The notes below the pieces were generated by a model. That model did no database searches. It was not told where the DNA came from and worked only from the letters and a program-made list of their open reading frames with translations. DNA of 64,000 nucleotides from the NCBI GenBank assembly GCA_041649475.1, contig JBAZNA010000001.1, positions 24,895-88,894 of the forward strand, written 5' to 3'. This DNA comes from Patescibacteria group bacterium (GTDB lineage Bacteria > Patescibacteriota > Patescibacteriia > Magasanikbacterales > GWA2-37-8). The position numbers and the translations under genes are program-made. Positions 4,130 through 16,466 of this stretch are shown here, one piece after another (positions within the stretch are counted from its first letter, which is position 1; each line of letters starts with the position of its first letter).

Positions 4130-4804
4130 TTAAATTTCTCCTGTTTTAAAAGTTTGTTTTAAATTTTCCAAATAGGCAATCGTGCCCTGACCAATGGTTT
4201 TCCAATTGGTCGGACAGAAAGACAAAAATTCAATTAGTGAAAAATGACCCGCTTGCTGGGTTTCAATTGCTTTGCGGATAAATTCCTGCATTTGTTTAAC
4301 GTCGTTTACGGCGGTTCTGGCCAAATACGCGCCTTCCTGCACTACGCTTTTTAACAGCTCCGGGCCAAACAACGCCTCCTCTTCATAACCATGAGGATGG
4401 GTGTCGGTCTTTTGTCCTTTTAAAGTTGTCGGCGCGGTCTGACCGCCGGTCATCCCGTAAAGTGTGTTGTTTATTACAAAAACCGTGATTGGCTCATCGC
4501 GCCTGGCCGCATATAATAAGCTCTGCAAACCAATTGCATAGGCCCCGCCGTCGCCGGTATAACCAAAACACAAGGACTCCGGCCTGGCTTTCTTAAAACC
4601 CATCATTGTCGGAGTCACCCGGCCGTGGTGGGTCTGAAAGGTGTTTACCGGCAAAAAATTCCAGGCCAAAAGCGAACAACCGATGTCCAAACCCAAAACA
4701 GCTTTGTCTTCAAATTTTAAATCTTTCAGAACTTTCCCCAGCATCATGAGCACTATCGGGTGTCCACAGCCGGCGCAAAATTTTGACGGTGCTAAATTCG
4801 GCAT
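4130..4804 (-). CDS. 2-oxoacid:ferredoxin oxidoreductase, beta (TPP-binding) subunit
   Basis: CAGCGH motif and GDGG...TGGQ TPP-binding region. 3-nt spacings to its neighbours suggest translational coupling. Confidence 0.85.
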   Translation of the reverse strand: MPNLAPSKFCAGCGHPIVLMMLGKVLKDLKFEDKAVLGLDIGCSLLAWNFLPVNTFQTHHGRVTPTMMGFKKARPESLCFGYTGDGGAYAIGLQSLLYAARRDEPITVFVINNTLYGMTGGQTAPTTLKGQKTDTHPHGYEEEALFGPELLKSVVQEGAYLARTAVNDVKQMQEFIRKAIETQQAGHFSLIEFLSFCPTNWKTIGQGTIAYLENLKQTFKTGEI

Positions 4805-5839: not shown

Positions 5840-6589
5840 TTATATGGCCTCGGCCAACTGCAGTTCCTCTTGTGAATTAACTCCCAAGGCCTCTCTGGCA
5901 TTGATCAGTACAGAAGAAGTTTTCTGTTCGTCATCAATTGCCTGTTTTACCAAATCCGTAAGATAATATTCCTGCTGAGCGTTATTATTTTTTAAATTCT
6001 TTAAATTTTTCCATAACCAATCTGCCTGAAAACAAAAGTAAGCCGGATTTATTTCTTTTATTTCTAATTCTTCCGCAGTCGCATCCTTTTTTTCAACAAT
6101 TTTCGCAATGCGCCCATCGCTGTCACGCACGATTCTGCCAAAATTATAAAAAGGCATGCGCCAATCCTCAAAATCAGGTACAACAGCGGTCATCATTGTG
6201 ATAATATCGTTATTATCCAAATGAATTTTTATCAATTTAGCAACTGATTGGCTGGTTAAATATGGATGGTCGCCATACAGCACGATAATATGGCCCACTT
6301 TATCTTTGAGCAAACTTTCGGCGCAAGCCACGGCGTGGCCGGTACCTAACTGTTCGGTTTGCACGGCAAAATTAACCCGATCACCCAAAAAATCACGCAC
6401 CAAATTATTGGTATTACTTACCACCACCGTTGGTTTAATTCCCAAACCTTCAACCACCCTGACAACATAATCTACTATTGGCTTACCTTTTAATTGATGC
6501 AATACTTTTGGCAAATCACTTTTCATTCTTTTACCCTGACCAGCCGCCAAAATCACAGCGCCCACATTGGTAAATTGTTCTTGCGTCAT
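5840..6589 (-). CDS. Sugar-1-phosphate nucleotidyltransferase, GlmU N-terminal (uridyltransferase) domain only
   Basis: VILAAGQGKRMKSDLPKVLH, EQLGTGHAV and NNAQQEYYLTD match the GlmU pyrophosphorylase domain. No left-handed beta-helix acetyltransferase domain follows (249 aa). Confidence 0.75.
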   Translation of the reverse strand: MTQEQFTNVGAVILAAGQGKRMKSDLPKVLHQLKGKPIVDYVVRVVEGLGIKPTVVVSNTNNLVRDFLGDRVNFAVQTEQLGTGHAVACAESLLKDKVGHIIVLYGDHPYLTSQSVAKLIKIHLDNNDIITMMTAVVPDFEDWRMPFYNFGRIVRDSDGRIAKIVEKKDATAEELEIKEINPAYFCFQADWLWKNLKNLKNNNAQQEYYLTDLVKQAIDDEQKTSSVLINAREALGVNSQEELQLAEAI

Positions 6590-8213: not shown

Positions 8214-8876
8214 TTATTTTTCGCCGTCCCATTCAGCCAAAAACTCTTCAATAAAATTATGAAGATACTGCTCTCTTTTTAAAGCAATAGCTTTGCCGAG
8301 TTTGGTATTCATCAGTTTCGGCAATTTGAAGGCCTTCTCGTAAAAATAATTAAAACTGGTGCCTTCTCTTTTTCTAAGCTGATAATCTTTTTTGCTCATC
8401 TTGCGGCGGGGTTTTCTTTTTGGATCATGAATCATGCGTTGGATATAACCGCCGGTGGCAAAAATCCGCGCTATCCCCAGCGCTCCAATAGTTTCCAGCC
8501 AGTCCGCGTCTTGAACAATTCTTCCTTCAATGGTTGATGGCACCCTGGTTTCACTGCCGTTAAATTGTGATTCGTCTATAATTTTTACTATTTTATCCTG
8601 CACATCTTTATCAATATCCAAAACATCCATCATTCCTAAAAGAATAAAAGGTCCCTTAAGGTCGCTCGTCTGATATTGTTGTCTGAAATTTTCAAATTCA
8701 TGAAGTAGCACTGCCAATTCAACCAATTCCAAATTGCCGCCTTCAGCTTTCTGAATCCGTTTTGCCATTTGCCAAACCCGCTCCACATGATACCAATCAT
8801 GGCCGGTGTGCTCGATTATAAGTTTTTGTTTGACGTATTCCGCTGTTTTTTGCACTAAATTTTGAGAAACAACCAT
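8214..8876 (-). CDS. HD-domain phosphohydrolase
   Basis: HDWYHVERV (H...HD) motif. 220 aa. Confidence 0.7.
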   Translation of the reverse strand: MVVSQNLVQKTAEYVKQKLIIEHTGHDWYHVERVWQMAKRIQKAEGGNLELVELAVLLHEFENFRQQYQTSDLKGPFILLGMMDVLDIDKDVQDKIVKIIDESQFNGSETRVPSTIEGRIVQDADWLETIGALGIARIFATGGYIQRMIHDPKRKPRRKMSKKDYQLRKREGTSFNYFYEKAFKLPKLMNTKLGKAIALKREQYLHNFIEEFLAEWDGEK

Positions 8877-8957: not shown

Positions 8958-9062
<105 letters not shown>

Positions 9063-9124
9063 AGACAATGGTCTTTTTTAAATTTTTAAAACATTGGCAT
9101 TGAACAGTCAACAATGGATATAAG

Positions 9125-12150
<3,026 letters not shown>

Positions 12151-12494: not shown

Positions 12495-12522
12495 ATTATA
12501 ACACTTGGCAAAATTTTGTCAA
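12495..12522 (-). promoter_or_regulatory. Consensus sigma70 promoter (TTGACA, 16-nt spacer, TATAAT) driving the 23S-5S operon
   Basis: On the minus strand the sequence reads cTTGACAaaattttgccaagtgtTATAATg. It sits directly downstream of the pdaD stop and about 340 nt upstream of the 23S 5' end. Confidence 0.7.
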
Positions 12523-12560: not shown

Positions 12561-13115
12561 TCAAACCTGCTCCTCTGTAATGAATACCGCGGCGGCAATG
12601 CAGGTTGTCCAAAGCCCGTATTTATTACACTGGGCTGATTGGCAAATATTGGTTGTTTTGATAATCTTTCCGCTTGCCTTATATTCCTGTTCCCTCTCAT
12701 TCCAGGCCTTTTCCGTGTCAAACTCTATACCGAGCGTGGTGGCCAACATAGTGGCAGCCAAATCCTCGGCATACTCGCCGGCTTTTTCATCTGTCTCGCC
12801 AAAAGCATGGTGTTCAGAAAGATAACCGTAAGTATCTTTGTCTGTGGGCAGAGCCAAGCCGATGGCGGCTGATATCAATCTGTTTGGTTCGTTGGTTTCC
12901 ACCCTGGCCATGACGCAAAAAGTTATCTGGCCTGCCTTTAAATTTGCGACCCCCTTTGCTCGGGGAATTATTTTGCATCCCGGAGGAAAAATGCTGGACA
13001 CGTAAACCAAATTTTGATTTTCAATGCCGGCGCTCCGAAGCGCCGCCTCAAAGGATGCCAATTTGTCTTTGTGCACGCCCACACCCTTCACGAAAAAAAT
13101 ATTTTTTGGGATCAT
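12561..13115 (-). CDS. pdaD: Pyruvoyl-dependent arginine decarboxylase (archaeal/chlamydial PdaD/AaxB type)
   Basis: [18 protein letters not shown]-terminus and the [10 protein letters not shown] self-cleavage Ser-Ser site are typical of PvlArgDC. 184 aa. Confidence 0.75.
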
Positions 13116-13120
13116 AAAAA

Positions 13121-13411
13121 TTAGATATCTTCTTTAAAAATTATTATGCAACTGCCAATTTTTTCATCAACTCTGGCTATTACACTTTGTAACTCCGGGA
13201 TTTTTAACAATTCCAGCACCTTTTTTCGTAATATTCCTTCGCCGATTCCATATATAATCCGGACCATCTCTTTATCCAAATGATAATTTTCCAAAACAAA
13301 ACCCCTGACATCTTCCTCATTAAAAAGAGACATTTTTTCATGCAAATCCAGCTCGGGCATTTTGGCTCCAAGCTCGGCGGCAAATGATTTTGCTTCAATA
13401 CTGTCAGACAT
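13121..13411 (-). CDS. Hypothetical small protein (96 aa from MSDSIEAK...)
   Basis: The longer ORF start (13441) would overlap tRNA-Leu, so the start was trimmed to the internal Met at 13411. Confidence 0.45.
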
Positions 13412-13414
13412 AAG

Positions 13415-13497
13415 TGCTGGAGGAGGGACTCGAACCCTCACGCCTTACGGCATTAGTTCCTAAAACTAACGTGGATACCAAGTTTCACCACTCCAGC
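13415..13497 (-). tRNA. tRNA-Leu (anticodon TAG), long variable arm
   Basis: Acceptor GCTGGAG/CTCCAGC, anticodon stem TTAGT/ACTAA with loop TTTAGGA (G37), variable arm TGCCGTAAGGCGT, T-loop TTCGAGT. Confidence 0.8.
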
Positions 13498-14169
13498 TTA
13501 ATTACGGCTATTTTCTTGTTGTCTCAAAAATTCTTTTGCCCGGCTATACTTTCTTTCCAAACTAGCCGGAAAACGTGAATAGTATAACAAATCTACTAAT
13601 TTTGTCGAGTCCCTCTTGGCATAAGCAAGCACATGTATACCACCACCAACAGTAAAATATCCTTTTATACCATCTTTTTCAGTCATACTTTTTACCCAAA
13701 CCAAAAAAGGTTTACTGGCCGAAACTAAACGAATTCTAAATTGTGGAAGCTTGCTTTCAGGATGCCTAAAAGAATCAATGGTGCCGTCGCCGTCTATACA
13801 CCCTCTTAAAAAATCATAGAAATACTTATCTGGAATATTCAACTCTCCTAAAGTTTTAGATTTCTTTGGCATCAACCCAATACTCAATAAAAATTTATAA
13901 AATAAAACATCCCCAAATTGTATGACATAATAATTTCTATCTTTCCTGCCATAACCGCATTTGCTTTTGATACCAATTTTATTACTCAGCCCCAAATATT
14001 TTTTATACAACTCTATAAAATCTAAATCCTTAGACGTAAAACTAATATGTCTGCCATCTGTAGACAAATTTCCGTCAGTCACAATCAAACCTATAACATA
14101 GGCAAACTCCGGTGACCATTCAATTTTTACTTTTGCGAGTGGTTTCATGTCAGAATCATACCACAGCAA
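13498..14169 (-). CDS. Free-standing double-motif LAGLIDADG homing endonuclease
   Basis: Two LAGLIDADG motifs are read: YVIGLIVTDGNL and FLRGCIDGDGTI, about 100 aa apart. 223 aa. The ORF stop abuts the 5' end of tRNA-Leu. Confidence 0.75.
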   Translation of the reverse strand: MLWYDSDMKPLAKVKIEWSPEFAYVIGLIVTDGNLSTDGRHISFTSKDLDFIELYKKYLGLSNKIGIKSKCGYGRKDRNYYVIQFGDVLFYKFLLSIGLMPKKSKTLGELNIPDKYFYDFLRGCIDGDGTIDSFRHPESKLPQFRIRLVSASKPFLVWVKSMTEKDGIKGYFTVGGGIHVLAYAKRDSTKLVDLLYYSRFPASLERKYSRAKEFLRQQENSRN

Positions 14170-14189
14170 AAATGAAGAATGGATAAAAA

Positions 14190-14220
14190 TAAAATAAACT
14201 GCTTTTGGCAGTTTATTTTA
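14190..14220 (-). terminator. Rho-independent terminator after pnp (AAACTGC-ttttg-GCAGTTT plus T-run)
   Basis: 7-bp stem followed by tattttattttt on the minus-strand transcript. Confidence 0.55.
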
Positions 14221-14234
14221 TAATAATTGTTGTT

Positions 14235-16466
14235 TTATCTTCCTCTTCCACCATGTCCGCCGCCTCTACCACCTCGTCCGCCACCGCCAAATCCGCCTCG
14301 TCCACCGCCACTGCTTCTTTCAAATGCCGGCCTTTCCACATAACCCTCCGGCTTTTCAAGCAAGGCTTTCATACTCAAGTTGGTGCGGCCTAAATTATCA
14401 ATTTCCTTCACTTTAACTTTCACGCGATCGCCTAATTTTAGCACGTCGCTTGGCTTGTTCACTCGGTCATAACTGATTTCACTGACATGAACCAAACCGT
14501 CCTGACCGGGCAAGATGTTCACAAAAGCGCCAAAGTCCTCCAAACGGACCACGGTGCCTTCATAAATTTCTCCGGCAGTCACTTCATGGGTCAATTCTTT
14601 AATCCAATTGACGGCTTTTTCCATGCCAGTGGCATCCGAAGACGTCACAAACACACGGCCATCATCTTCTATATCTATAGACACACCGGTTTCGGCAATA
14701 ATCTTGTTGATTATCTTGCCGCCCGGGCCGATCACATCACGGATCTTATCCGGATTAATATTAATGGTAATAATTCTCGGTGCATACTGTGACATTTCCT
14801 TTCTCGGTTCGGCAATCACGCCTTTCATAAAGTCCAAAATCTTGATTCTGGCTGATTTTGCCTCCGCAAAAGTTTTCTTCACAATATCCCAGCTTAAACC
14901 ATCGGTCTTGGTATCCATCTGAATGGCAGTGACGCCATCACGAGTGCCGGCAATCTTAAAGTCCATACCGCCCGGCCCATCTTCAACATCCTGCAAATCA
15001 GTTATCAGTTTCCAACTGCCTTTTTTATCGCTGGCCAAACCCATGGCAATCCCGGCCACCGGCTTCTTCAAAGGCACACCGGCATCCATTAGAGCCAAGG
15101 TTGAACCGCAGGTTGAAGCCATTGAACTGGATCCGTTTGAACCAAGCACTTCAGAAACAACCCTGATTGCATAAGGAAAATCGGCTTCAGCGGGAAGCAT
15201 TGGTTCAACCGCCCGTTCGGCCAAAGCGCCATGACCAATGGCACGATTACCCGGTCCGCGCAAAGGTCCGGCTTCACCGTAAGTGGCCGGCGTATCATTA
15301 TAATGATGCATGTACCGTTTCTTGCCTTCTTCTTCCATAGTGTCTAATGTCTGCACATCGCCGGGAGCGCCCAAAGTGACTACAGACAAAACCTGGGTAT
15401 CGCCTCGCATAAACAGACCGGTGCCATGAGTGCGCGGCAAAAGTCCGATTTCCGCTTTCAATTCTCTAACCTCATCAAGTTTTCTGCCGTCCAGCCGCTC
15501 TCCTTTTTCCAAAATACGGCTAGTAATCTCTTTTTCAACATAGATTTTTACCCGGCCGAGTACAATCTTTTTTATGGTTTCATCAACTTCTTTTTCATCA
15601 AGCATTTCGCCAATGGCCTTGCTGAATTTTTCAATCATCAACACCCTTTCGGCTCTGCCCTTTTTAGGTGCCTCAAAAATCCAATCATCAACATGGCTGG
15701 CTACAAATTTTTCCGCTTCTTTTTCAACTTTGCGCAATTCCAATTCTTTTTCATCGGCAATCTGGGAAAGATCCAGTTTGGCCTTGCCAACTTCTTTTTG
15801 AATTTTATTTATCAGATCCAAAATCGGTTTGAGTTCCTTGGCCCCAAATTGCATAGCGCCAATAACTTCATCTTCCGGGGTTTCTTTACAGCCCGCTTCC
15901 ACCATAATCACTTTATCCGGCGTACCGGCTACCACTAAATCAACACTGCCGGTTTCCCTCTCCGCAAAGGTGGGGTTAATTTTCCATTTGTCCTCAATCT
16001 TACCAATTCTAACGCCGGCAATCGGACCCTGCCACGGGATTTCAGAAATTGACAGGACGATTGCGGCCGCAATCATGGCCGGTATCTGCGTATCATTCTC
16101 GCCGTCATAGGACAAAGCAGTTAAAATCACCTGCACGTCATTGCGCATGGTTTCATCAAACAGTGGTCTGATAGCACGATCAACCAAACGACCGGAAAGT
16201 ACCGCCTCTTCGCTCGGTCTGCCTTCGCGCTTGATAAACCTACTGCCCTTAATTTTTCCGGCCGCATATAATTTTTCCTCAAAATTCACCATCAGCGGGA
16301 AAAAATCTATGCCGTCGCGGGTGGTCTTACTCATCACGGCGGTAGCCAAAAGCACGGTGTCGCCATAGCGAACCGTACAAGACGCATTGGCCTGAAGAGC
16401 CAATTTACCAACTTCAATAGAAAGGGTGCGTCCGCCCCATTCTATGGACCAGTTTTTTACTTCCAT
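14235..16466 (-). CDS. pnp: Polyribonucleotide nucleotidyltransferase (PNPase) with C-terminal Gly/Arg-rich (RGG) tail
   Basis: Two RNase PH-like domains, then KH and S1 regions. The last about 25 residues read GGGRGGFGGGGRGGRGGGHGGRGR. Confidence 0.9.
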   Translation of the reverse strand: MEVKNWSIEWGGRTLSIEVGKLALQANASCTVRYGDTVLLATAVMSKTTRDGIDFFPLMVNFEEKLYAAGKIKGSRFIKREGRPSEEAVLSGRLVDRAIRPLFDETMRNDVQVILTALSYDGENDTQIPAMIAAAIVLSISEIPWQGPIAGVRIGKIEDKWKINPTFAERETGSVDLVVAGTPDKVIMVEAGCKETPEDEVIGAMQFGAKELKPILDLINKIQKEVGKAKLDLSQIADEKELELRKVEKEAEKFVASHVDDWIFEAPKKGRAERVLMIEKFSKAIGEMLDEKEVDETIKKIVLGRVKIYVEKEITSRILEKGERLDGRKLDEVRELKAEIGLLPRTHGTGLFMRGDTQVLSVVTLGAPGDVQTLDTMEEEGKKRYMHHYNDTPATYGEAGPLRGPGNRAIGHGALAERAVEPMLPAEADFPYAIRVVSEVLGSNGSSSMASTCGSTLALMDAGVPLKKPVAGIAMGLASDKKGSWKLITDLQDVEDGPGGMDFKIAGTRDGVTAIQMDTKTDGLSWDIVKKTFAEAKSARIKILDFMKGVIAEPRKEMSQYAPRIITININPDKIRDVIGPGGKIINKIIAETGVSIDIEDDGRVFVTSSDATGMEKAVNWIKELTHEVTAGEIYEGTVVRLEDFGAFVNILPGQDGLVHVSEISYDRVNKPSDVLKLGDRVKVKVKEIDNLGRTNLSMKALLEKPEGYVERPAFERSSGGGRGGFGGGGRGGRGGGHGGRGR

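Follow-up and report, generated by a model that had tools for sequence, protein, structure and literature searches.

A putative mobile LAGLIDADG homing endonuclease cassette linked to tRNA-Leu genes in Patescibacteria

Introduction

Homing endonucleases are thought to persist in conserved genes inside self-splicing introns or inteins, and free-standing homing endonucleases are known mainly from phages and organelles. Integrative elements such as phages and ICEs insert in tRNA genes and restore them with a tRNA segment that they carry. One organellar case, the Allomyces atp6 element, was reportedly described by Paquin, Laforest and Lang in 1994.

In fungal mitochondria, free-standing endonuclease genes are accompanied by partial duplications of their target genes, atp6 and cob (PMC6279837). 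Phage T4 SegB is a free-standing GIY-YIG homing endonuclease encoded in a tRNA gene cluster (PMC2330249); its recognition site includes a conserved tRNA-gene motif, and it spreads together with flanking tRNA DNA to genomes without it by intronless homing (PMC3984707). LAGLIDADG genes of CPR/Patescibacteria have been found in rRNA insertion sequences and group I introns (PMC11270868), and bacterial tRNA group I introns occupy the anticodon loop (PMC13011429). Here we analyze a LAGLIDADG gene that directly abuts a tRNA-Leu gene in a 64-kb stretch of a Patescibacteria genome (64,000 nucleotides, hereafter the window), and compare it with its relatives (designated by L numbers).

Results

A free-standing LAGLIDADG gene touches tRNA-Leu(UAG)

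The endonuclease gene and its surroundings in the window comprise the following features:

8958-9064: 5S rRNA gene (Rfam)
9145-12125, minus strand: 23S rRNA gene (Rfam)
13121-13411, minus strand: Smr-domain ORF, with its ATG at 13411, 2-3 nt past the tRNA 3' end (sequence and Pfam)
13414-13497, minus strand: tRNA-Leu(UAG), complete and intron-less, the presumed target gene (ARAGORN; Rfam, 52.8 bits; family-wide linkage)
13498-14148, minus strand: LAGLIDADG homing endonuclease ORF (sequence, Pfam, identical NCBI protein, AlphaFold2 model, Foldseek)
13581-13608, minus strand: promoter-like site TCGACA-16-TG-TATACT inside the 3' part of the ORF, 84 nt before the tRNA (sequence)
14189-14221, minus strand: intrinsic terminator hairpin of the PNPase gene, the left limit of the endonuclease cassette (the order is the same in empty sites)
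14235-16466: PNPase gene, upstream of the endonuclease (sequence)

The gene is free-standing, between the PNPase terminator and tRNA-Leu, and lies in neither an intron nor an intein. The ORF has its own start and stop codons and lacks a Hint domain, and an Rfam scan of positions 13000-14500 gave no match to a group I intron or other ribozyme down to E<=10. At gathering thresholds and at E<=10, Rfam returned the tRNA, chance microRNA-like matches on the terminator hairpin, and nothing else. The TAA stop codon (13500-13498) touches position 1 of the tRNA at 13497. The 23S rRNA gene, 1373 nt from the ORF with the Smr-domain and arginine decarboxylase genes in between, spans Rfam model positions 1-2925 in just 2981 nt and is therefore without an intron. 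The original prediction, made from the DNA letters, proved correct in that the gene is free-standing and abuts tRNA-Leu(TAG) and that the 23S gene has no intron.

The order tRNA-Leu to Smr is kept in relatives, and the Smr ORF, the endonuclease and tRNA-Leu probably share a transcript. The promoter-like site at 13581-13608 could be an internal tRNA promoter by its sequence; the Tyr-Tyr codons at this position read TATTAT/TACTAT in most homologs, and the site may be a chance product of AT-rich DNA.

The predicted product is a monomeric double-motif enzyme

The 223-aa ORF described originally does exist from a TTG codon (13498-14169, minus strand), but the likelier product has 216 aa and begins at the ATG at 14148-14146, as judged from homolog starts. 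The protein features are:

13777-13809, minus strand: second LAGLIDADG motif, LRGCIDGDGTI, residues 114-124 (sequence; model helix 107-121, then a strand)
13788-13786, minus strand: codon of catalytic Asp D121 (sequence and family alignment)
14065-14097, minus strand: first LAGLIDADG motif, VIGLIVTDGNL, residues 18-28 (sequence; model helix 13-25, then a strand)
14076-14074, minus strand: codon of catalytic Asp D25 (sequence and family alignment)
14149-14169, minus strand: in-frame TTG extension, overlapping the -10 element described below (homologs and the NCBI protein begin at the MKPL.. methionine)

The TTG extension is probably untranslated. An NCBI protein with 100% identity to the 216-aa product is annotated as 'LAGLIDADG family homing endonuclease [Patescibacteria group bacterium]'. 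One homolog carries the source name 'Intein-containing protein'; it has 220 aa and LAGLIDADG_3 alone.

Pfam LAGLIDADG_3 matches the window ORF in two stretches (E=4.8e-13), and the Pfam scan of this ORF found no other domain, neither Hint nor an extra DNA-binding domain. An AlphaFold2 model (pLDDT 89.4, pTM 0.87) shows two alpha-beta-beta-alpha-beta-beta-alpha halves with both motifs in predicted helices. In Foldseek searches with this model the top PDB match is the LAGLIDADG enzyme I-Tsp061I (2dch; E=4.8e-12), and 2dch, I-DmoI, I-SceI and I-AniI all match with probability 1.00; 2dch is also the best sequence match (E=7.7e-7, ~23% identity). Residues D25, G26, D121, G122, Q77 and K96 are invariant across 82 family members. 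By sequence and predicted structure, the protein is a monomeric double-motif LAGLIDADG enzyme, in agreement with the original prediction. The free-standing homing endonuclease gene is intact, and its product is probably active.

The family is bound to tRNA-Leu rather than to rRNA

Clustered at 50% identity, the endonuclease family comprises 309 clusters (E<=1e-30) and is apparently a large, undescribed family in Patescibacteria. We counted linkage over 81 loci, namely the window and the best 80 from a set that comprises 323 loci in genomes and hundreds in metagenomes. A tRNA-Leu(UAG) or tRNA-Leu(GAG) gene lies beside the endonuclease in all 81 of these, a recurrence that argues against chance adjacency. 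The endonuclease is directly upstream of tRNA-Leu on the same strand in 76/81: in 74 (60 tag, 14 gag) the ORF ends -59 to +72 nt from the tRNA, and to these we added L068, where the contig end cuts off the tRNA, and L078, where the tRNA is truncated. The remaining five loci still flank tRNA-Leu(tag), in other orientations. ORF and tRNA overlap in 48/81 loci, and in 12 the TAG anticodon itself serves as the stop codon. The ORFs are full-length (207-237 aa) in 80/80 of the best relatives, three of which lack ATG, GTG or TTG at the predicted start, and they are followed by a complete tRNA rather than a 3' exon.

The original prediction also drew attention to the rRNA operon and to rDNA as a possible target. 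A 23S-5S operon does lie 1.4 kb downstream on the same strand in the window, as would suit an rDNA-targeting nuclease that adjoins a tRNA incidentally. Across the 81 loci, however, a 23S gene occurs within ~6 kb in just four (the window, L004, L009 and L039), against 81 for tRNA-Leu, and we consider an rDNA target very unlikely, to the point of being negligible. Judged by family-wide recurrence, tRNA-Leu is the real partner and the 23S operon is incidental; of the two targets proposed for a mobile nuclease, the comparative data favor the tRNA and speak against the rDNA.

We also considered a phage vector and rejected it. The relatives found in viral contigs are all at <=34% identity, and none of 33 distant viral LAGLIDADG loci has a tRNA-Leu neighbor.

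A tRNA-Leu 5'-half remnant precedes the endonuclease gene

Upstream of the ORF, 63/81 loci (window and best 80 relatives) carry a conserved remnant of the tRNA-Leu 5' half, positions 15-37, which we term the pseudo-half (motif ATTGGCAGACGCTATATGGTTTAG). A 30-nt motif was detected in these 63 upstream regions at E<0.01, compared to four matches in 766 kb of control sequence. When run against 191 tRNAs, the motif model matched 37 tRNA-Leu and two others, and motif positions 1-24 always aligned to tRNA positions 15-37. Whole 5' halves are present in L031, L009, L028, L008 and L038 (nhmmer with a tRNA-half model, E 8e-6 to 1e-3). The anticodon of the remnant agrees with that of the adjoining tRNA: 12/12 gag loci have a GAG remnant and 47/50 tag loci a TAG remnant, and the two are never crossed.

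Pairwise local alignments between the upstream regions and the 5' halves of their own tRNAs gave modest scores (median z 1.8; z>3 in 18/79), and the evidence for the pseudo-half therefore comes from profile searches and consistency of register. Pairwise identity is 73.9% within the motif versus 69.2% over the same span of real tRNAs, and the motif is no nearer to its own tRNA than to the tRNAs of other loci. By these comparisons the pseudo-half is no fresh copy of the local tRNA but behaves like a conserved cassette component, and the point where it ends may reflect a single ancient event instead of repeated insertion. The window has no pseudo-half upstream of the ORF or elsewhere in its 64 kb. 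Viewed against its relatives, the window copy is a derived state in which the pseudo-half was lost and the ORF is flanked by an extended -10 box on one side and by tRNA position 1 on the other; part of the cassette model is consequently drawn from the relatives.

The pseudo-half ends in the anticodon loop, the seat of bacterial tRNA group I introns (PMC13011429), as would be expected if a group I intron once in tRNA-Leu (or in rRNA) had lost its ribozyme and left the ORF behind. The closest enzyme of solved structure is intron-encoded, and LAGLIDADG genes are common in Patescibacteria rRNA insertions (PMC11270868), in line with this origin, which was among those first suggested for the gene. 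However, the ORF-only layout recurs throughout the family, the 0 nt downstream and ~40 nt upstream of the ORF are too little to hold a ribozyme, no intron model matches at E<=10, the tRNA after the ORF is uninterrupted in all loci, and so is the 23S gene. A published survey of tRNA introns in Patescibacteria lists HNH rather than LAGLIDADG genes and no tRNA-Leu case in the phylum. An intron relic is therefore highly improbable in our judgment.

Promoter geometry suggests a leaderless transcript

Immediately upstream of the window ORF we noted one further element:

14155-14165, minus strand: extended -10 promoter-like element TGTGGTATGAT, with the hexamer TATGAT at 14160-14155 (sequence)

It ends 6 nt before the ATG at 14148 and resembles the tRNA promoter TGTGGTTAAAT of the empty sites described below. 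In 43/81 loci, versus 1.9% of control ATGs, 6-8 nt separate the end of a -10 hexamer from the start codon; such spacing predicts a leaderless mRNA, and the sequence suggests that the endonuclease message is of this kind, with the element as its putative promoter. In the canonical arrangement the -10 box stands right behind the pseudo-half, and the tRNA D-loop sequence TTGGYA, 17 nt upstream, would be used as the -35 element. Endonuclease and tRNA-Leu would be transcribed together, with RNase P cleavage falling at, or within, the 3' end of the message.

WhiA, a LAGLIDADG-derived transcription factor, is among the Foldseek matches of the window model (15% identity), and a protein domesticated for a host role, such as a WhiA-like DNA-binding regulator of the tRNA-Leu operon acting on the tRNA-like motif, would account for several of our observations. 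The upstream motif overlaps the promoter and is better conserved than a decaying pseudogene should be, it occurs without an endonuclease in L026, L029 and L077, and the family as a whole is strongly conserved. Yet both catalytic aspartates are invariant, whereas domesticated LAGLIDADG proteins of the WhiA kind have, as far as is known, lost the catalytic acidic residues and gained a C-terminal helix-turn-helix domain, and Pfam finds no additional DNA-binding domain. Most close relatives with the same tRNA-Leu operon lack the gene, so no general host need is evident. We regard domestication as distinctly unlikely.

Most syntenic relatives have an empty site

Relatives anchored on PNPase (53-84% PNPase identity) keep the gene order tHis-tArg-S15-NYN-PNPase-tRNA-Leu(tag)-Smr. 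The endonuclease is absent from ~36/38 of these syntenic loci, which run from PNPase through terminator and promoter to tRNA-Leu; only the window and L088 have it, and L088 is the sole carrier among 37 metagenome loci with tRNA-Leu downstream. Eight empty sites have just 78-108 nt, terminator plus promoter, before the tRNA (L081, L082, L085, L095, L096, L110, L112 and L125), and the pseudo-half of L088 begins exactly at the tRNA start point of the empty site L087. No endonuclease remnants were detected by tblastn at E<10 in the intermediate-sized gaps of syntenic loci, where unrelated ORFs are found. Solo motifs or footprints were noted in L094, L097 and L157. Since the gene is missing at the same site in most relatives, it is polymorphic for presence and absence, the outcome of a comparison that had been proposed along with the original prediction. 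The nearest relative by PNPase is 84% identical, and a search for an endonuclease-less strain of the same species by exact look-up of the window Smr and arginine decarboxylase proteins gave no record.

The window, L011, L012, L021 and L088 have PNPase/S15/NYN/Smr synteny in common, at 64-78% PNPase identity. Comparison of identity matrices with PNPase, NYN and S15 shows that endonuclease identity tracks host identity loosely: the L088 endonuclease is 64.4% identical to that of L011 and 63.3% to that of the window, with host PNPase identities of 65% and 78%. These matrices are suggestive rather than decisive, and would fit vertical descent with many losses as well as repeated transfer.

The shared synteny of these five hosts, their rough clustering in the endonuclease tree, the loss of the pseudo-half in the window and the lack of close relatives in viral contigs are consistent with a resident that entered once, long ago, has been inherited vertically and is no longer mobile, the window copy being unable to home without a pseudo-half. 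Such a gene would persist by its position between a promoter and an essential single-copy tRNA-Leu, where imprecise deletion is hard. Position alone would not keep the ORF, however: its full length in 80/80 relatives and 100% conservation of the catalytic residues require selection on the protein. The clean empty sites and the near-equal identities of the L088 endonuclease to two unequally related hosts also count against immobility, and overall we find this explanation unlikely.

Sequence differences between tag- and gag-linked enzymes

In the family tree, the gag-linked endonucleases form one clade. Eight residues separate the tag and gag clades, and all fall in 124-149, a stretch made up of the first C-terminal-domain beta-hairpin and the helix next to it; the hairpin of the N-terminal domain varies in neither clade. 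This clade-specific recognition hairpin, along with the pseudo-half junction at tRNA nt 36/37, points to the anticodon arm as a candidate target.

By inspection, there is no consistent difference in anticodon stems or loops between endonuclease-linked and endonuclease-less tRNA-Leu(tag) genes. The whole tRNA adjoining the gene would be expected to rebuild any target within the tRNA, which counts against a homing model, and with linked and unlinked tRNAs alike, self-immunity lacks an explanation in that model. If a cassette whose 5' half had a TAG anticodon moved to a GAG tRNA, the anticodon of that tRNA should have changed; the bodies of the gag-linked tRNAs are of the native gag type, so the origin of the gag lineage needs an extra step. 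The motif copies without an endonuclease in L026, L029 and L077 and the conserved, non-local character of the pseudo-half also weigh against the model.

Discussion

The architecture of the locus, its linkage to tRNA-Leu, its presence/absence polymorphism and the conserved catalytic residues are direct observations. Our best reading, which we hold with moderate confidence, is a free-standing, probably mobile endonuclease cassette that is specific for tRNA-Leu and nested in a duplicated tRNA 5' half, and is neither an intron relic nor aimed at rDNA. The canonical cassette begins with a pseudo 5' half of tRNA-Leu ending in the anticodon loop (nt 36/37), followed by the -10 box, a start codon 6-8 nt on, the ORF, and a complete tRNA-Leu that the ORF abuts or overlaps. 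The whole lies within a directly duplicated segment of the tRNA (positions about 1/15 to 37). We infer the target and the insertion point from these junctions: the enzyme would recognize the anticodon-arm region of the tRNA-Leu gene, and the cassette would have entered, and would re-enter, endonuclease-less alleles through break repair following the predicted cleavage. The tRNA would be kept whole by a second 5' half traveling with the cassette, and the displaced half would be retained and reshaped as a promoter for putatively leaderless transcription, possibly also as an operator or homology arm. Recombination between the two 5' halves could delete the gene cleanly and restore the empty site.

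Taken jointly, these steps would amount to a third route, besides introns and inteins, by which a homing endonuclease can occupy an essential conserved gene; this broader proposal we advance as possible rather than probable. The cassette would cut the tRNA-Leu anticodon-arm region, insert there and heal the damage with the spare 5' half, and the displaced half would become promoter (with the D-loop as -35), and possibly operator and homology arm. The tRNA would lend a stop codon and 3'-end formation, so that expression would be tied to how an essential tRNA is transcribed and then processed by RNase P. In two sublineages, one DNA-recognition hairpin would have been retargeted to tRNA-Leu(UAG) or tRNA-Leu(GAG).

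In a bacterial phylum whose genomes are tiny, an entire family is tied to one tRNA species by a fixed architecture of pseudo-half, leaderless ORF (as predicted) and intact tRNA, which suggests how a selfish nuclease gene can persist at an essential gene with neither intron nor intein. If this is true, partial duplication would be a general gene-healing strategy for such elements, and the family would offer natural LAGLIDADG scaffolds with switched UAG versus GAG tRNA-Leu specificity, useful for retargeting studies. The endonuclease would be a direct marker of DNA exchange among Patescibacteria, and tRNA-flanking pseudo-halves and ORFs reading into tRNA genes would be real features, not annotation errors.

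Among known systems, the rRNA-intron enzymes of CPR bacteria and the archaeal I-Tsp061I (2dch) are likewise LAGLIDADG_3, double-motif monomers of ~200 aa, and the CPR enzymes share the phylum. They are embedded in rRNA introns or insertions, whereas the window family is intron-free and has a different predicted class of target gene. Integrative elements resemble the window family in supplying a replacement for the displaced part of a tRNA and in having a partial tRNA repeat at one end. They rely on tyrosine integrases, bring along the 3' part of the tRNA and extend over kilobases; in contrast, the cassette is ~0.7 kb, with a homing endonuclease as its sole gene and a 5'-half repeat.

SegB, like the window family, is a free-standing nuclease gene among or beside tRNA genes. 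It is a GIY-YIG phage gene, while the window family is LAGLIDADG and cellular. SegB recognizes a T-psi-C stem-loop motif and is not bound to one tRNA species, unlike the tRNA-Leu-tied window family, and it is without the duplicated tRNA half, putative tRNA-derived promoter and ORF-tRNA overlap found here. The fungal atp6 and cob cases share with the window family an endonuclease ORF that is flanked by a complete gene and by a duplicated piece of that gene, and in both, insertion into a conserved gene appears to be neutralized by duplication, not splicing. The fungal elements have protein-coding targets, 3' (C-terminal) duplications and often degenerate ORFs, and reside in organelles; in the window family it is the 5' half of a tRNA that is duplicated, the remnant is conserved and apparently reused as a promoter, and the arrangement is widespread in a bacterial phylum.

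The window gene encodes a LAGLIDADG homing endonuclease abutting tRNA-Leu

The ORF that the original prediction placed at 13498-14169 on the minus strand is present, its 223 aa being counted from the first in-frame TTG. An ATG at 14148 yields a 216-aa version with 100% identity to a protein that GenBank lists as "LAGLIDADG family homing endonuclease", from a genome bin of Patescibacteria that includes a 963-kb contig, and an MKPL-type methionine is the common start of all homologs. Pfam detects LAGLIDADG_3 in two stretches of the protein (E=4.8e-13), and both predicted motifs were found (VIGLIVTDGNL at 14065-14097 and LRGCIDGDGTI at 13777-13809). An AlphaFold2 model generated with 30 homologs as input is confident (pLDDT 89.4, pTM 0.87), and consists of two alpha-beta-beta-alpha-beta-beta-alpha halves with a motif helix at the head of each. 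When this model is compared with solved structures, I-Tsp061I, an intron enzyme from an archaeon, ranks first, followed by intein endonucleases, I-DmoI, I-SceI, I-AniI and WhiA; I-Tsp061I is also the sole significant match in a sequence-only comparison (E=7.7e-7). Taken singly, the window gene is an ordinary-looking endonuclease, already annotated in GenBank.

Genes and signals around the endonuclease, in minus-strand order
14235-16466, minus strand: PNPase, first in order, before the terminator
14221-14189, minus strand: terminator hairpin, between PNPase and the endonuclease
13414-13497, minus strand (that of the endonuclease): tRNA-Leu(UAG), called by ARAGORN and Rfam
13411-13121, minus strand: Smr-domain ORF, after tRNA-Leu
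13115-12561, minus strand: pyruvoyl-dependent arginine decarboxylase gene, after the Smr-domain ORF and before 23S and 5S
9145-12125, minus strand: 23S gene, with the 5S gene next

The endonuclease's TAA stop codon (13500-13498) adjoins tRNA position 1, as predicted for its abutment to tRNA-Leu(TAG). The 23S gene covers the full Rfam model in 2981 nt and therefore has no intron, again in line with the prediction. Searching 13000-14500 for Rfam intron and ribozyme families gave no match even at E<=10; the gene is free-standing, and we rejected the reading of it as an intron relic.

Three other features of this neighborhood stand out. The Smr-domain ATG (13411) begins just 2-3 nt past the tRNA-Leu 3' end (window 13409-13415), the tRNA does not encode CCA, and relatives again have Smr after tRNA-Leu with only a short spacer (for example L011, an endonuclease-relative locus, and L081 and L100, two PNPase-anchored metagenome loci), which together suggest that the 5' end of the Smr mRNA is produced via tRNA 3' processing. 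Between the arginine decarboxylase and 23S genes, 12495-12522 (minus strand) contains TTGACA-16-TATAAT with an upstream TG, a 12/12 match to a sigma-70 promoter that is probably the rRNA promoter. Finally, the PNPase C-terminal tail (14235-14310, minus strand) is glycine/arginine-rich and RGG-like (..SSGGGRGGFGGGGRGGRGGGHGGRGR), an extension that to our knowledge is not expected on a bacterial PNPase.

The endonuclease family is linked to tRNA-Leu

We identified more than 1,200 relatives of the window protein in a large protein collection, nearly all of them 205-225 aa long, and a profile search returned 309 clusters (50% identity) at E<=1e-30. A scan with one genome per species located relatives in 323 stretches of species-representative genomes, from which we took the best 80 (45-64% identity). 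All 80 are labelled as, or resemble, Patescibacteria lineages, including Magasanik-, Staskawicz-, Yanofsky-, Kaiser-, Nomura-, Jorgensen-, Wolfe-, Lipton-, Harrison-, Doudna- and Moranbacteria.

In 74 of the 81 loci (these 80 plus the window), the ORF ends -59 to +72 nt from the 5' end of a same-strand tRNA-Leu, with anticodon TAG in 60 and GAG in 14. The ORF runs into the tRNA gene in 48/81 loci and stops there at fixed tRNA positions (overlap of 10, 24 or 37 nt); the TAG anticodon itself is the stop codon in 12 loci, and translated tRNA forms the C-terminal tails of some homologs (..TWRNWQPHTP, ..GRVAELA). The seven remaining loci still fit the tRNA-Leu pattern: the adjoining tRNA-Leu(GAG) ends at the contig end in L068, the adjoining tRNA-Leu(TAG) is truncated in L078, and L039, L047, L050, L059 and L080 lie <250 nt from tRNA-Leu(TAG) in orientations that differ from the main pattern. 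L047, L050 and L059 share one clade of the endonuclease tree, which points to a single rearrangement.

Upstream neighbors differ among loci, and are often a tRNA cluster (Cys, Leu-UAA, Lys-CUU). The rRNA operon near the window gene had figured in the original prediction; a 23S gene lies within ~6 kb in just 3/80 relatives, and we rejected a relation to rDNA on this basis. It is tRNA-Leu that stays constant across the family, and not the rRNA operon. Of 33 distant LAGLIDADG_3 loci from viral contigs (<=34% identity), taken as a negative control, none had a tRNA-Leu neighbor. What stands of the original interpretation is a free-standing, putatively tRNA-directed enzyme; the rDNA and intron-relic readings do not.

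Several individual loci depart from the common picture. At L078 1756-2480, on a 63% GC contig labelled Armatimonadota, a family member of 51% GC without a clear start codon is followed by the truncated tRNA-Leu(UAG), and could be a transfer beyond the usual hosts, part of a mis-binned contig or a decaying copy. L003, another relative's locus, carries a second, partial LAGLIDADG-like stretch (4353-4652, minus strand; 37% identity to residues 11-108) just downstream of tRNA-Leu(UAA) and tRNA-Cys, which could be a decayed paralog at another tRNA-Leu isoacceptor. On a 359-kb viral contig, a distant LAGLIDADG ORF (L163 2856-3728; 28% identity) sits between tRNA-Gly(UCC) and tRNA-Gly(GCC) within a tRNA cluster. 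In the Magasanikbacteria locus L039, the 23S gene contains a ~285-nt insertion (6249-6534) at a point matching ~nt 2055 of the window 23S, which could be an ORF-less intron or an insertion sequence.

A conserved tRNA-Leu 5' pseudo-half precedes the family's ORF

A recurrent sequence precedes the endonuclease ORF: ATTGGCAGACGCTATATGGTTTAG followed by TATAAT at TAG loci, and ATTGGTATACGCTATTACCTTGAGG followed by TATAAT at GAG loci. An iteratively built profile of this motif matched 63/81 upstream regions (E<0.01), with only four matches in a 766-kb control set drawn from these loci. Among all 191 tRNAs of these loci it matched 37 tRNA-Leu and 2 others, and in every tRNA match motif positions 1-24 corresponded to tRNA positions 15-37, spanning the D-loop, the D-stem 3' strand, the anticodon-stem 5' strand and the anticodon loop. 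By this sequence comparison, the motif is homologous to tRNA-Leu. The whole 5' half including the acceptor strand is kept in six relatives' loci (L028, L031, L008, L009, L024, L006) and in the metagenome locus L088, and a tRNA-half profile picks up several of these whole-half loci (E of 8e-6 to 1e-3). The anticodon of the remnant is that of the neighboring tRNA, GAG in 12/12 GAG loci and TAG in 47/50 TAG loci, and is crossed in none.

The tRNA homology of the remnant stops at nt 36 or 37, with a -10-like box directly after it. The remnant has "TAT" in place of the "GC" of the real tRNA and is 1 nt longer, giving TTGGYA-N17-TATAAT with optimal sigma-70 spacing. A hexamer matching at least 5/6 TATAAT positions occurs <=30 nt from the start codon in 66/81 loci, and such a hexamer ends 6-8 nt before the start in 43/81 loci versus 1.9% of 1,594 control ATGs. 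This geometry predicts that the endonuclease mRNA is leaderless.

Mean pairwise identity is 73.9% among remnants versus 69.2% for the same span of functional tRNAs, and the proteins of the same loci have diverged to ~50% identity. Each remnant's own tRNA is no nearer to it than are the tRNAs of other loci. Given this conservation and lack of closeness, the remnant behaves as a selected part of the cassette and not as a decaying sequence. It could be a promoter only, an operator or a homology arm; for the operator reading, I-TevI is a known case of autorepression. The motif also stands alone, with no endonuclease ORF following it, in three relatives' loci (L026 12054-12084 and 12143-12166; L029 6938-6964; L077 3599-3620), and both L026 copies are identical to the one before the endonuclease 6 kb off. 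These solo copies may be extra promoters, binding sites or footprints.

The endonuclease gene comes and goes at a conserved locus

With the upstream PNPase as anchor, we collected 80 metagenome loci (PNPase identity 53-84%), among which the order tRNA-His, tRNA-Arg, S15, NYN-domain protein, PNPase, tRNA-Leu(UAG), Smr is kept. In eight loci (L081, L082, L085, L095, L096, L110, L112 and L125) the tRNA lies just 78-108 nt beyond the PNPase stop codon, an interval holding a terminator hairpin, a promoter (TTGATT..TGTGGTTAAAT) and a ~10 nt leader; L081 is the closest of these empty sites (84% PNPase identity). PNPase is followed downstream by tRNA-Leu in 37 of the metagenome loci, and L088 alone among these has the endonuclease (63% identity), so the gene is clearly presence/absence polymorphic at one locus, a point on which the original prediction had proposed a comparison of loci. 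The other gaps in these 37 loci hold unrelated ORFs, and endonuclease remnants were not detected in them.

At the same site, L088 contains in order the resident promoter TGTGGTTAAAT, an 11 nt leader, the pseudo-half, TATGGTATAAT, 7 nt, and the ATG and ORF, with the functional tRNA directly after the stop codon. Its pseudo-half (GCCGACGTGGTGGAATTGGTATACGCATTTAGTCTTAGG) starts at precisely the point at which the tRNA of the empty site L087 starts. In the clade that contains the window, loci show progressive erosion of the pseudo-half: L021 has all of it, L011 and L012 have a part, and the window, which reads ..TGCTGTGGTATGATtctgacATG at this point, has none. The window's junction may have come from a deletion in an L088-like ancestor, between its two similar extended -10 boxes (TGTGGT and TATGGT). 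A tRNA-Leu-like 5' half (GCGGGCGTGGTGAAATTGGTATATTCACCCTGTC..) also lies immediately before the functional tRNA-Leu(UAG) in three endonuclease-less loci (L094 ~4610-4664, L097 ~8535-8587 and L157 ~1850-1902), and may be a scar or footprint of endonuclease loss.

In L087 and L088, the first ~120 nt past the PNPase terminator also contain an antisense sequence ending in a T-arm, acceptor strand and CCA (reverse complement ..CGGGGTTCAACTCCCCCTCGCTCCACCA). ARAGORN makes no call here, and the sequence could be an unusual or interrupted tRNA gene.

Protein conservation and putative target specificity

Across 82 family members, the catalytic residues D25 and D121, the glycine after each, Q77 and K96 are invariant, and K40 and K61 nearly so. 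The ORF is full-length (207-237 aa) in 80/80 relatives, three of which lack ATG/GTG/TTG at the predicted start. The invariant catalytic residues and full-length ORFs argue for selection on nuclease function.

In the endonuclease tree, the GAG-linked enzymes group together as one clade. Eight positions distinguish it from the TAG clade (>=80% conserved inside each and differing between them), and every one of them lies within residues 124-149: I124F, H129D, E131R, S132W, Q136M, L137F, F148H and L149I. In the AlphaFold2 model, segment 124-149 comprises the first beta-hairpin of the C-terminal domain and runs into the following helix; its counterpart hairpin in the N-terminal domain (26-41) is invariant in the two clades alike. 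Such hairpins make up the sheet with which LAGLIDADG enzymes read DNA. The pattern is consistent with two enzymes that have one half-site in common and differ in the other, as a target across the anticodon region of tRNA-Leu(UAG) or tRNA-Leu(GAG) would predict, and is suggestive only, since clade and target are confounded.

A proposed homing mechanism

A direct duplication of the tRNA-Leu 5' half, with its inner boundary fixed in the anticodon loop, encloses the cassette, whose ORF has no room for signals of its own: the predicted -35 element is borrowed from the tRNA D-loop, and the stop codon often from the tRNA. We propose that the enzyme cuts tRNA-Leu genes in the anticodon-arm region, and that the break would be repaired from the cassette-bearing allele, pairing through the pseudo-half (or, within a species, shared flank) on one side and the tRNA 3' part on the other. 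The second 5' half downstream of the ORF would keep the tRNA intact. The tRNA-derived promoter would drive a leaderless endonuclease message fused to the tRNA precursor, and RNase P cleavage at tRNA position 1 would fall at or inside the ORF end, so that full-length protein would come only from unprocessed transcripts. Recombination between both 5' halves would precisely delete the gene and recreate the targets.

This model meets two difficulties. First, the intact adjoining tRNA should rebuild any target inside the tRNA, which bears on self-immunity; comparing endonuclease-linked with endonuclease-less tRNAs, we saw no consistent difference as an immunity signature. Second, the GAG lineage is hard to derive: a cassette with a UAG-type 5' half would convert a GAG tRNA, yet the tRNAs at GAG loci have bodies of native GAG type, and the derived "TAT" feature is nevertheless common to GAG and TAG remnants. 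Endonuclease and PNPase identities are 64.4% and 65% for L088 versus L011, 63.3% and 78% for L088 versus the window, and 52-55% and 47% for L035, another relative's locus. By these values endonuclease identity tracks host identity only loosely, and since the loci were selected by similarity, the comparison does not decide between vertical and horizontal descent. The family context of the window endonuclease is unexpected, and a specific mechanism becomes directly testable.

Comparison with known systems

Literature searches found no description of the family's tRNA-Leu linkage or pseudo-half, and no paper joining "homing endonuclease", "Candidate Phyla Radiation" and "free-standing". In a survey of Patescibacteria tRNA group I introns (PMC13011429), HNH genes are described from tRNA-Asn introns and LAGLIDADG genes are mentioned for rRNA introns only; another survey, on rRNA insertion sequences, says nothing of tRNAs (PMC11270868). 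We regard the family as free-standing homing endonucleases whose tRNA-embedded, putatively gene-healing architecture is unusual. In fungal mitochondria, partial duplications of target genes lie beside free-standing endonuclease ORFs (PMC6279837). The closest functional precedent is T4 SegB, a free-standing GIY-YIG endonuclease encoded among the tRNA genes of the phage. A conserved tRNA motif forms part of its recognition site (PMC2330249), and it spreads via an intronless homing pathway (PMC3984707).
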